A DNA stretch of 64,000 nucleotides, from NCBI RefSeq assembly GCF_003334385.1, contig NZ_QOWN01000006.1; one strand, 5' to 3'. The notes beneath the pieces were generated by a model. That model was given only the letters and a program-made list of their open reading frames with translations. It was not told where the DNA came from and searched no databases. A program made the position numbers and the translations under genes. The stretch comes from Escherichia coli (GTDB lineage Bacteria > Pseudomonadota > Gammaproteobacteria > Enterobacterales > Enterobacteriaceae). Shown here one piece after another: positions 23,579 through 27,948 of this stretch. Position 1 is the stretch's first letter, and each line of letters opens with the position of its first letter.

Positions 23579-23669
23579 CTTTTTATTATTCTGTGTCATG
23601 ATGCTTACGTTATTAGCCTTTTATCGTCTTGTTTATATTTTTTGGGCCGGCATGATGCCGGCTTTTTTT
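23579..23669 (+). ncRNA. rseX: Candidate RseX-like small RNA in the yedR-porin intergenic region
   Basis: Intrinsic terminator (gccggca-tga-tgccggc then seven T) at 23646-23669 with no + strand CDS to terminate; I recall RseX mapping between yedR and yedS; 5' end is a guess. Confidence 0.4.
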
Positions 23670-23980
23670 ATACCTTCATTAATGTGCGCGTGATCACACC
23701 AAGTGTTTAGCGCAACAATCATTGATACTCCCTATCTTTCCGCTTAACTCATAACATATTGATATACATTTATAATTTTCATGAATATTTATATTTGGAA
23801 TTCATGATTCTGAATTATATTAAATAGATTAGAAACATTTTGAAATCTTTTAAATACATTTGTTGCATGTAATCCTTAAAATAAAATGAAGTTCATAGAA
23901 TAGTATCCAAATGTGCTTTTTTTTGGATAACGGCACTTATTGATATATTCATGAAGATTATAATCACAAGGGAATACATA

Positions 23981-25039
23981 ATGAAAAGAAAAGTTCTGGC
24001 AATGCTGGTCCCGGCGTTATTAGTTGCTGGCGCAGCAAATGCGGCTGAAATTTATAATAAAAATGGCAATAAACTGGATTTGTACGGCAAGATGGTTGGT
24101 GAGCGCATTCTGACCGACCGTGAAAATGGTGAAAAAGGCGATAATTCTCAAGATACCTCTTATGCCCGTGTAGGCGTGAAAGGTGAAACTCAGATCAACC
24201 CTGAATTGACTGGTTACGGTCAGTTTGAACTAGACCTGGAAGCATCAAACAGACACAACCCTGACCAAACTCGTTTGGCTTATGCTGGTTTGAGTTACAA
24301 AGATTTTGGTTCATTCGACTATGGTCGTAATGTCGGTGTCGCGTATGATGCAGAAGCATTTACTGATATGTTTGTTGAGTGGGGCGGTGATTCATGGGCT
24401 GGTACTGACCTGTTCATGACCAACCGTACCAACGGTGTTGCAACCTATCGTAACACAGATTTCTTTGGCATGGTTGAAGGTCTAAATTTTGCTCTGCAAT
24501 ATCAGGGTAAAAATGAAGGTACAGGCAACTACAAAGCAAATGGCGATGGCCATGGTTTATCTGTAACTTACACTATTGACGGTTTCTCATTTGCTGGTGC
24601 TTACGCAAACTCTGATCGTACTGATTTCCAGTCTAGTGATAGTAAAGGTGAAAAAGCAGAAGTTTGGGCACTGTCAACAAAATATGATGCCAACAACGTC
24701 TATGCTGCTGTGATGTACGGTGAATCTCACAACATGAATTCCGACGACGGTGATGTTGTGAACAAAACACAAAACTTCGAAGTTGTTCTGCAATATCAGT
24801 TCGACTTCGGTCTGCGTCCATCCATCGGTTACTCCTATTCTAAAGCACTGGACGTAGCAGGTTACAAAGATTCTGATCGTCTGAACTACATTGAAATCGG
24901 TACCTGGTATTACTTCAATAAGAACATGAACGTATATACCGCTTATCAGATCAACCTGCTTGATAAGAGTGATTATGTTCTCGCTCATGGACTGAACACC
25001 GACGACCAACTCGCATTTGGTATCGTCTACCAGTTCTAA
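23981..25039 (+). CDS. yedS: General-diffusion porin of the OmpC/OmpF family (yedS-type), apparently intact
   Basis: Signal peptide MKRKVLAMLVPALLVAGAANA, beta-barrel repeats, C-terminal YQF; ORF track start 23951 trimmed to ATG 23981 with RBS. Confidence 0.8.
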   Translation: MKRKVLAMLVPALLVAGAANAAEIYNKNGNKLDLYGKMVGERILTDRENGEKGDNSQDTSYARVGVKGETQINPELTGYGQFELDLEASNRHNPDQTRLAYAGLSYKDFGSFDYGRNVGVAYDAEAFTDMFVEWGGDSWAGTDLFMTNRTNGVATYRNTDFFGMVEGLNFALQYQGKNEGTGNYKANGDGHGLSVTYTIDGFSFAGAYANSDRTDFQSSDSKGEKAEVWALSTKYDANNVYAAVMYGESHNMNSDDGDVVNKTQNFEVVLQYQFDFGLRPSIGYSYSKALDVAGYKDSDRLNYIEIGTWYYFNKNMNVYTAYQINLLDKSDYVLAHGLNTDDQLAFGIVYQF

Positions 25040-25081: not shown

Positions 25082-25118
25082 AGCCTGAGTTCGTCCCTCA
25101 TCGAACTCAGGCTTTTTT
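25082..25118 (+). terminator. Intrinsic terminator after the porin gene
   Basis: agcctgagttcg ... cgaactcaggc inverted repeat followed by a T-run. Confidence 0.55.
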
Positions 25119-25630
25119 ATTGGCATTTTATCTCCCTCTGCGGCACGCGCAATTGCCAAAGCATATCGATACAGCACCTTACCCTGCCCCTGCTGGCACA
25201 ATAACATCTACCAGCGACTCTTCCAGCCAAGACCCAAATGCATTTCTTTATGAATTAATCTGCAACAAAACCGCCTCCCATATAGAAATATTTGCAAAAA
25301 TAGTGCATGAAATACGCTTTTTCTCTACCAATCCGGGATATAAATATTCATCAGCACCACAATATTCCACAGCACTAAATCTCTCCCCGTCGCCCCGTAC
25401 CTCTGATAATGGTCTAAAATCATTGAGGCCACTTGCGACGACGTTGCTCAATAAGGAAAATTTGGCGTGAATAATATTCAACACCAGTGCAGCATCATCA
25501 TTACATACTTACACCCGCCGACGACCGCTTTCGATATATTGACTCAATTTTCCAGCCTGGTTAAAAATAGCGACCAGCTCAGTCGAAAATATAGTGACTA
25601 CCCTAACTAAGCAACAATAAGGAATACACT

Positions 25631-26482: not shown

Positions 26483-26517
26483 TCCCTGTTACGTATGAAT
26501 GTAAGCGCATAATCAAT

Positions 26518-26557
26518 CGCAGCCACGTTAATACTCACGACGTGGCTGCGTTTTTTC
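26518..26557 (+). terminator. Intrinsic terminator after hchA
   Basis: gcagccacg ... cgtggctgc stem followed by gtttttt. Confidence 0.5.
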
Positions 26558-26589
26558 ATGGTTGATTTATGGCGTACTGAAGCCCTATG

Positions 26590-27948
26590 TTAATTTCTTT
26601 GCGGTAACATAATCCGGAACACATTATGCTTATTGAGATAGTGATACGTAGCACTTCCCCCATGTAATTCGGCAATCGCTTTGACTAAAGAAAGACCAAG
26701 TCCCTGACCTACGGAATGACGCGAATTATCTCCCCGCCAAAATCTACGGAAGAGTTTTTCAGGCTCATGAATTTTCGTTCCAGGACTGGCGACATCAATA
26801 TTAAGATAGCCGTTGGTATCAAGAAAACTGGTTATCTCAATACGCGATTTTTCTGGTGAATATCTAATGGCATTAACAATAAGATTCGATAACATTCGTT
26901 GCAGTAAAATTTTATCCGCAAAGATTTGCTGATTGCACTCGACCTTAAAGCAAATCTCTTTCTCGTCTGAAAGGTATTCAAGATAATCCAACAAATTTTC
27001 GACTTCCTTATTGAGAGAAAGCGAGTCCAGTTTCACCAAAACATTGTTTTTATCTGCCCGGGCAAGAAACAGTATGTTCTCTGTTAACCGCGAAATATTT
27101 TCCAGCTCTTCAATGTTACCGGCAATTGTTTTTTGATATTCAGCGATACTTCTGGTTTGACTGAGCGTAACCTGATTCTGACCCAGTAATGCATTAATGG
27201 GCGTTCTAAGTTCATGAGCGAGATCGTCAGCAAATTGACTTAGGCGTTCAAAATCTTTGACTAAAGCATGATGCATTTTATTCAACGCCTGCCCAAGAGG
27301 TTTTAGTTCTCTCGGTAATGCGCTAACCTCAACAGGCTCCCGGCTATCGTTATAATTCAGCGCTTCCGTTACACCACTCAACTTTTTGATCTCTCGTAAC
27401 CCCGTTCGGATTAACAGCGGACTTAATACTGAGCACAGTATAATGGCGACAATGCAAATTATAATGCTATTGATTTTATACTGTTCAAGCATGTTATGTC
27501 TGGCTGAAGCCAATTTAGCCACAGTAACCGTTAATGATGGCGAAACTTCATCAATATTAATTCGTAAAGCATCTATCTCTGTATCATTAATAATGCTTCT
27601 GTAAATGCCAGCTGCGCTGATTGTCTCACTAGCAGGTATGTTATTTAACATGCCATCACTGACATTTGTCCGGTTAACAATTTTATTGATGCTATCACCA
27701 TGAATGATCAAGATATCCTGACTAACATCCATCATCCGGTTAAAGTACACAGGTAACGTATCTGGATTTACCCCATCAATTAACAACTGCTTGATCTGTG
27801 CTGTCCGGTTAATGAGTGTTGTATCATCGCGCCATTTCAACTCACTTGCCAGGCCATTATAGAGAGTCCAGACAATTCCAGCACCAGCAACAGACAGTAG
27901 CAATATAAAAAGCAAGGTTAAACGGACGGTTATAGACAATCTTTTCAT
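26590..27948 (-). CDS. hprS: Sensor histidine kinase HprS (YedV)
   Basis: 452 aa; two transmembrane segments, HAMP, H-box HELRTP, HATPase domain. Confidence 0.9.
   Translation of the reverse strand: MKRLSITVRLTLLFILLLSVAGAGIVWTLYNGLASELKWRDDTTLINRTAQIKQLLIDGVNPDTLPVYFNRMMDVSQDILIIHGDSINKIVNRTNVSDGMLNNIPASETISAAGIYRSIINDTEIDALRINIDEVSPSLTVTVAKLASARHNMLEQYKINSIIICIVAIILCSVLSPLLIRTGLREIKKLSGVTEALNYNDSREPVEVSALPRELKPLGQALNKMHHALVKDFERLSQFADDLAHELRTPINALLGQNQVTLSQTRSIAEYQKTIAGNIEELENISRLTENILFLARADKNNVLVKLDSLSLNKEVENLLDYLEYLSDEKEICFKVECNQQIFADKILLQRMLSNLIVNAIRYSPEKSRIEITSFLDTNGYLNIDVASPGTKIHEPEKLFRRFWRGDNSRHSVGQGLGLSLVKAIAELHGGSATYHYLNKHNVFRIMLPQRN

Follow-up and report, generated by a model that had tools for sequence, protein, structure and literature searches.

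An intact yedS allele, probably encoding an OmpF/OmpC-type general porin, at a highly polymorphic locus of Escherichia coli

Among the described systems closest to the gene reported here, OmpK35 corresponds to OmpF in Klebsiella and is encoded at the ompF locus, and OmpS1 of Salmonella enterica is a quiescent porin regulated by H-NS, LeuO and OmpR. The E. coli K-12 gene has been listed as 'yedS (ompS1)', an equivalence of names alone (PMC2731931), and in K-12 the yedS transcript went down 2.5-fold upon sigma-E induction, together with those of ompF, ompC and phoE (PMC2731931). The K-12 copy is a pseudogene: compared with the 397-aa allele of strain O177:H21, which is intact and of the K-12 class, it has a TAG triplet at codon 162 and lacks 1 bp at nucleotide 663; the yedS copy of O157:H7 is also frameshifted. 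Because the K-12 copy is dead, the K-12 reference is uninformative for yedS. An active yedS porin gene has been reported in the carbapenem-resistance mechanism of a clinical isolate, in an account that, as relayed, leaves the allele family unspecified (Warner et al. 2013, AAC 57:1935, via PMC4048246). In addition, a putative porin called "50% homologous" to K-12 YedS was detected by proteomics in the membranes of a Shiga-toxin-producing strain.

The gene analysed in this work lies at 23981..25039 on the + strand of a 64,000-nucleotide stretch of an E. coli contig (NZ_QOWN01000006.1), which we refer to as the window. The order of genes in the window, yedA-vsr-dcm-yedJ-drpB-rseX-porin-hchA-hprS-hprR-hiuH, is the order found around yedS (b4496) in K-12 MG1655, and the porin gene sits between drpB (yedR)/rseX and hchA and has the orientation of both rseX and hchA. 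The initial annotation had placed the gene at the yedS position and had taken yedS to be a pseudogene in K-12; the shared gene order agrees with the first statement, and the K-12 annotation together with the direct comparison of alleles agrees with the second. As argued below, the gene is very probably an intact, selectively maintained yedS allele that encodes a 16-stranded general-diffusion porin of the OmpF/OmpC type, minor and conditionally expressed.

The coding sequence, which belongs to the allele group that we call family A, consists of 1059 nt, that is, 352 codons followed by TAA. Reading of the ORF and its translation revealed 0 internal stops and 0 frameshifts and a protein terminating in ...GIVYQF, such that the earlier description of an uninterrupted 352-aa ORF ending in YQF was correct, and the gene is free of both the amber codon and the frameshift of the K-12 copy. 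The NCBI pipeline calls the identical 1059-nt CDS in near-identical genomes, under the label 'porin'. The Pfam model Porin_1 (PF00267) was matched over its entire length (1-337 of 337) by residues 27-352, with an E value of 1.6e-110. A signal peptide had also been claimed, and we found it in the first 21 aa (23981..24043, + strand), where the OmpC-type sequence MKRKVLAMLVPALLVAGAANA, followed by AEIYNK, aligns position by position with the precursors of OmpF and OmpC and was also aligned with the remaining yedS alleles; it is identical across all the allele families compared. Cleavage is predicted to occur after Ala21, at an Ala-Ala site carried over from OmpF and OmpC.

A Shine-Dalgarno-like AAGGGA (23968..23973, + strand), invariant across the allele families, is placed 7 nt upstream of the ATG at 23981. 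An alternative in-frame ATG, 10 codons upstream at 23951, would produce a 362-aa protein by adding MKIIITREYI; we rejected it as the start, as it is devoid of a Shine-Dalgarno sequence and used in none of the annotations examined, and its presence in all allele families is due solely to the conservation of the whole upstream region. Beyond the stop codon, a strong intrinsic terminator begins after 43 nt (25082..25118, + strand), with a 12-bp stem (25082-25113) containing 7 G-C pairs followed by the T-run TTTTTATT.

We then examined the completeness of the barrel. An AlphaFold2 model of the window protein, built from an alignment of 29 sequences (mean pLDDT 76.6, pTM 0.74), contained 16 beta-strands and was of low confidence solely in the signal peptide, part of loop L1 and residues 137-150 of loop L3 (pLDDT <50). 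When superposed on OmpK35 (5o77), the model gave TM-scores of 0.83/0.87 with 59% identity, and TM-scores of about 0.8 were obtained with the OmpF, OmpC and OmpK36 structures. Insertions and deletions relative to K-12 OmpF and OmpC are confined to loops L1, L2, L4, L5, L6, L7 and L8 and spare the strands. The continuous beta-barrel proposed from the first inspection, for which a lack of strands relative to intact family members had been named as the refuting observation, is thus complete: no strand is absent with respect to OmpF, OmpC or OmpK35. The pore-lining residues of OmpF, K16, R42, R82, R132, D113 and E117, correspond to K37, R63, R98, R149, D129 and E133 in the window protein, so that all six are conserved. 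D129 and E133 are part of L3, the constriction loop (residues ~116-154; 24326..24442, + strand), delimited by alignments to OmpF/OmpC and OmpK35, whose motif reads VEWGG in place of PEFGG; VEWGG is also found in OmpK35.

From these features a porin pathway can be proposed. The precursor would be exported by the Sec system and cleaved after Ala21, and the mature protein would be inserted by BAM through the C-terminal ...YQF signal, to form, presumably as a trimer, a channel filled with water. In it, L3 would produce the constriction, the acidic D129 and E133 lying opposite the basic K37, R63, R98 and R149, and hydrophilic solutes of small size, beta-lactams and carbapenems among them, could diffuse through the pore. 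Nothing in the sequence speaks against export, insertion by BAM or general diffusion. We also considered a more specialised role for the protein, such as that of a PhoE-like porin selective for anions or phosphate. The NCBIfam PhoE model scores the protein at 407.8 bits, close to the 414.9 bits of the OmpF model, and PhoE structures rank right after OmpK35 in the sequence search; however, that score is far under the 599-bit cut-off of the PhoE model, the pore residues match those of the general porins, and the gene has no pho-regulon context. Moreover, the position of PhoE Lys125, the residue behind the anion selectivity of PhoE, is occupied by Asn in the window protein (FMTNR), and this counts against a PhoE-like channel. 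A specialised function is therefore very unlikely, and a general-diffusion porin remains the reading that we follow.

Comparing alleles chosen as representatives from complete genomes of E. coli, we could distinguish no fewer than five deeply divergent families in the yedS slot, with 59-70% amino-acid identity between them, which we labelled A, B, C, D and D2 for this analysis. Family A (352 aa) includes the window, Nissle 1917 and NC101 alleles, with 97-100% protein identity to the window; family B (357 aa; FXCREC035 and a15) is 69% identical to the window protein, family C (371 aa; NRZ106056) 68%, family D (387 aa; 702/18 and CX05) 59%, and family D2 (397 aa; O177:H21, with the K-12 and O157:H7 pseudogenes being of similar type) 60%. 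The differences in length sit in loops L4 to L7, family A having the shortest loops, and the proteins of families D and D2 are named "porin OmpC" by the NCBI pipeline. Loop L3 of the intact family D allele of 702/18 has LPVFGG in place of the LPEFGG of OmpF; Val thus takes the position of OmpF E117 in this allele, and the change could alter the charge and selectivity of its channel.

The resemblance of the window gene to K-12 yedS is limited in extent. Positions 1-107 of the window CDS match K-12 2034051-2034157 at 96.3%, whereas over the protein the identity to the K-12-type alleles (D and D2) is 59-60%, with dS >1.2, and the window protein does not belong to the K-12 family. It is 35-45 residues shorter than the K-12-type alleles, and the difference lies in the surface loops. 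This divergence marks the window gene as a member of a different allele family residing in the same locus, and not as a repaired or unbroken version of the K-12 gene.

Pairwise identity profiles and breakpoints, drawn between the window and loci L004, L006, L009, L011 and L001, delimited an allele-specific divergent block at 24050..25024 (+ strand). Within the block the DNA identity between families is 41-84% per 100 nt, and in the flanks it is 84-100%; the left edge falls at 24050-24100, just past the signal peptide, and the right edge at 25016-25024, before the stop codon, varying with the family compared. The conserved flanks include the 310-nt regulatory region, the last codons and the terminator. 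Synonymous divergence between families reaches dS values of 1.2-2.1, with 1.7 in the comparison with the Klebsiella oxytoca gene and 0.09 within family A, and the corresponding dN/dS ratios are 0.16-0.25 between families, 0.12 against the K. oxytoca gene and 0.13 within family A. Ratios of 0.13-0.25 indicate purifying selection on a working protein.

Such divergence led us to weigh whether the window gene is a foreign OmpK35/OmpF-like porin gene, recently transferred horizontally, that replaced yedS. The families are as divergent from each other as genes of different genera (dS 1.2-2.1), the best match among solved structures is Klebsiella OmpK35, and the G+C content is 43%, against roughly 53% in the genes to the left. 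However, the sequences point to no recent source of family A: outside E. coli, the closest relatives come from K. oxytoca, whose porins are only 69% identical and, in the one look-up made, occupy the same dcm-yedJ-drpB-porin position, which implies that the locus is old. Besides, the promoter region, signal peptide, last codons and terminator are common to all the other alleles, no mobile element or repeat was found at the borders of the block, and the internal DNA diversity of family A, about 3%, is typical of a long residence in E. coli. We consider a recent transfer improbable, and the gene is better regarded as a long-resident allele of yedS under purifying selection.

The arrangement of the families suggests, tentatively, that the yedS slot is an old balanced polymorphism in which cassettes are exchanged behind one regulatory region under frequency-dependent pressure on the surface loops; we offer this as a speculative reading. 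The cassettes would be bounded by breakpoints close behind the signal peptide and shortly ahead of the stop codon, and the pressure on the loops could come from phages, colicins or host antibody. The repeated loss of the gene, as in K-12, O157:H7 and the IS-disrupted copies, would represent an alternative escape route, and family A could be an escape form with minimal loops. In the searchable literature, whose coverage is incomplete, we found no description of the allele structure of the yedS slot.

Intactness of the gene was next placed in the context of the species. The exact window protein has already been deposited as "porin [Escherichia coli]" (e.g., OWD68853.1), recurs on 4 contigs in independent records, and is one of 2,356 sequences clustered at 90% identity; it differs from the common WP_000824370.1 by a single substitution, A268V. 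The CDS found a match somewhere in 5,026 of 5,426 complete E. coli genomes, many of them solely over the shared signal-peptide region. As these short matches inflate the 95-99% identity band, the band is unusable for counting, and we set the identity bands aside and estimated the share of family A from rows taken at even intervals along the ranking: 14 of these 60 rows were family A, that is, an estimated one fifth or so of the 5,426 genomes. The gene measured exactly 1059 nt in one piece in 13 of these 14 rows and was split by IS2 in the fourteenth. All seven full-length family A copies that were fetched are annotated as intact with a normal protein accession, and the five of them that were fetched as CDS-only loci also translate without an internal stop. 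Intact copies were found in families B, C, D and D2 too, and one frameshifted porin gene beside an IS30 was seen among the fetched loci. Since intactness is usual in family A, it is not a distinguishing feature of the host strain. The observation of an intact yedS is therefore correct but ordinary, the protein and the contrast between an active YedS and the dead K-12 copy being already known. In several genomes, including NC101, K-15KW01 and Nissle 1917, the yedS query matched at a second place as well, which points to a further related porin gene at another chromosomal site.

These frequencies also bear on the idea that the ORF, although intact in appearance, is a very young pseudogene, inactivated by a missense change or by a lesion in its regulation. 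Loss of yedS occurs readily, as the K-12 and O157:H7 frameshifts and the IS2- and IS30-associated disruptions attest, and A268V separates the window protein from its common relative WP_000824370.1. Yet the 5' region shows about 96% identity with the other alleles, the exact protein recurs in the independent records mentioned above, and residue 268, placed in a strand of the model, is also Val in an intact family D2 allele. A recent death of the gene is thus hardly probable, and we continue to regard the allele as probably functional.

The expression of yedS was approached through its regulatory region, which extends from rseX to the yedS start (23670..23980, + strand), has a G+C content of 28-31% and is about 96% conserved between families. 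The small RNA gene rseX itself (23580..23669, + strand; Rfam RF01401, 96.8 bits against a gathering score of 50, E 2e-13) ends in its own terminator at 23644-23664; it lies directly upstream of yedS, in the same strand, and is kept beside every allele family examined. A consensus scan of the + strand from rseX to the yedS ATG found no consensus sigma-70 promoter. Given this and the very AT-rich upstream sequence, yedS may be largely silent. Codon usage is intermediate, with a Fop of 0.67 for yedS, 0.81 for ompF, 0.92 for ompC and 0.36-0.60 for the neighbouring genes. Such an intermediate bias, together with the AT-rich upstream region lacking a consensus promoter, suggests a minor and conditional porin, maybe silenced under standard conditions; YedS is thus most likely, as far as these sequence features can tell, a conditionally expressed minor porin rather than a major one.

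Candidate regulatory elements were searched in the same region. A CRP-type site, TAATGTGCGCGTGATCACACC (TGTGC-N6-TCACA; 23680..23700, no strand assigned), is predicted just past the rseX terminator and is the counterpart, with one spacer difference, of the site at K-12 2033766 that a Footprint-seq preprint assigns to yedS (PMC12871828). At 23835 the 11-mer ACATTTTGAAA matches the C1 box of ompC; nevertheless, a match of this length was reached in 38 of 500 shuffles and is not above chance, so that the putative OmpR box is no more than a lead. Warner et al. are said to have linked MarA, MicF and YedS. Direct pairing of the MicF 5' end with the translation-initiation region of yedS received no computational support: the predicted duplex (-12.6 kcal/mol) is no better than those of shuffled targets (mean -13.2 kcal/mol, with 169 of 300 as good or better), whereas the MicF-ompF duplex used as positive control reached -27.4 kcal/mol, a value attained by none of 300 shuffles. 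Pairing of MicF elsewhere, or an indirect control of yedS, is possible.

How much protein is made is the one point on which a further reading departs from ours. In this reading, which otherwise overlaps with our explanation and differs solely in the amount of protein, yedS is intact but quiescent, for example through silencing by H-NS bound to the AT-rich upstream region, and would make an ordinarily near-zero contribution to permeability; the Salmonella quiescent porins OmpS1 and OmpS2 serve as its model. The low G+C content of the upstream region (28-31%), the lack of a consensus promoter in the + strand and a codon bias well under those of ompF and ompC are in favour of it, as is the repression of the neighbouring rseX by H-NS/StpA (PMC8313858). 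On the other hand, the codon bias exceeds that of the neighbouring genes, and selection at dN/dS values of 0.13-0.25 implies that the protein is made under some conditions. Furthermore, even K-12 contains a detectable, regulated yedS transcript (PMC2731931), an active yedS has been reported in a clinical isolate in the account relayed by PMC4048246, and a YedS-like porin, 50% homologous, was detected in the Shiga-toxin-producing strain. We hold quiescence to be a possible, rather doubtful state of the gene and retain a low, conditional expression as the preferred one.

The surroundings of yedS deserve some observations of their own. Between the yedS terminator and hchA there is a 116-aa ORF with a TTG start (25120-25470, + strand), whose equivalent is, depending on the genome, the 'hypothetical protein' WP_072647715.1, unannotated, or replaced by a hypothetical ORF in the opposite strand. 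Further to the right, hprS-hprR-hiuH (about 26500-29300) has a G+C content of 36-46%, against roughly 53% in yedA-dcm-yedJ, and in strain 1919D62 the hprS gene is split by an ISVsa5 insertion. In genomes matching the right-hand part of 14000-36000, a tyrosine recombinase gene and ybtS, for yersiniabactin synthesis, are found under the match, and from these two genes the window appears to enter a yersiniabactin island not far downstream of yedS.

The practical message of this work is modest, as the host strain has a common intact family A allele of a gene that pipelines label just "porin". The suggestion of the initial annotation that an intact copy could matter for outer-membrane permeability agrees with the active yedS gene reported by Warner et al., as cited in PMC4048246. 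In cells that have lost OmpF and OmpC, beta-lactams and carbapenems can still enter through an additional, third or fourth, general porin, and because an extra porin can admit these drugs, the intactness and the allele of yedS are relevant to the prediction of resistance from genomes. The extreme allelic diversity of the slot pertains to the species and is nothing particular to the window, and it may merit a study at the population level; this cassette-like hyper-polymorphism, analysed here from representative alleles, is the only mildly interesting point.

In relation to the known porins, YedS of the window resembles OmpF, OmpC and PhoE of K-12 in its fold, type of signal peptide, pore residues and C-terminal insertion signal. 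It is 56% identical to OmpF and 54% to OmpC, and it differs from them in its locus and in a weaker codon bias. Its filing under any of the three was rejected, as the protein falls below all the NCBIfam cut-offs: 414.9 bits of 583 for OmpF (NF007446), 407.8 of 599 for PhoE (NF007544) and 391.8 of 484 for OmpC (NF007841). With scores under the cut-offs, YedS is to be regarded as a separate porin to which the properties of OmpF, PhoE and OmpC are not simply transferable. OmpK35 of Klebsiella pneumoniae (PDB 5o77, 9hn1) is the closest solved structure both by sequence (E 1e-131) and by fold, and with respect to it L2, L4, L6 and L7 of YedS are shorter and L1 is longer. The K. oxytoca porin at the yedS-like position, 69% identical to the window protein, is distinct from OmpK35. 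To Salmonella OmpS1 the likeness, drawn from the yedS sequence alone, is that of an AT-rich upstream region lacking a consensus promoter, as expected of a silenced porin gene. Finally, with K-12 YedS (b4496) the window gene shares the slot, the start codon, the 5' untranslated region and the signal peptide, and very nearly the last codons and the terminator.
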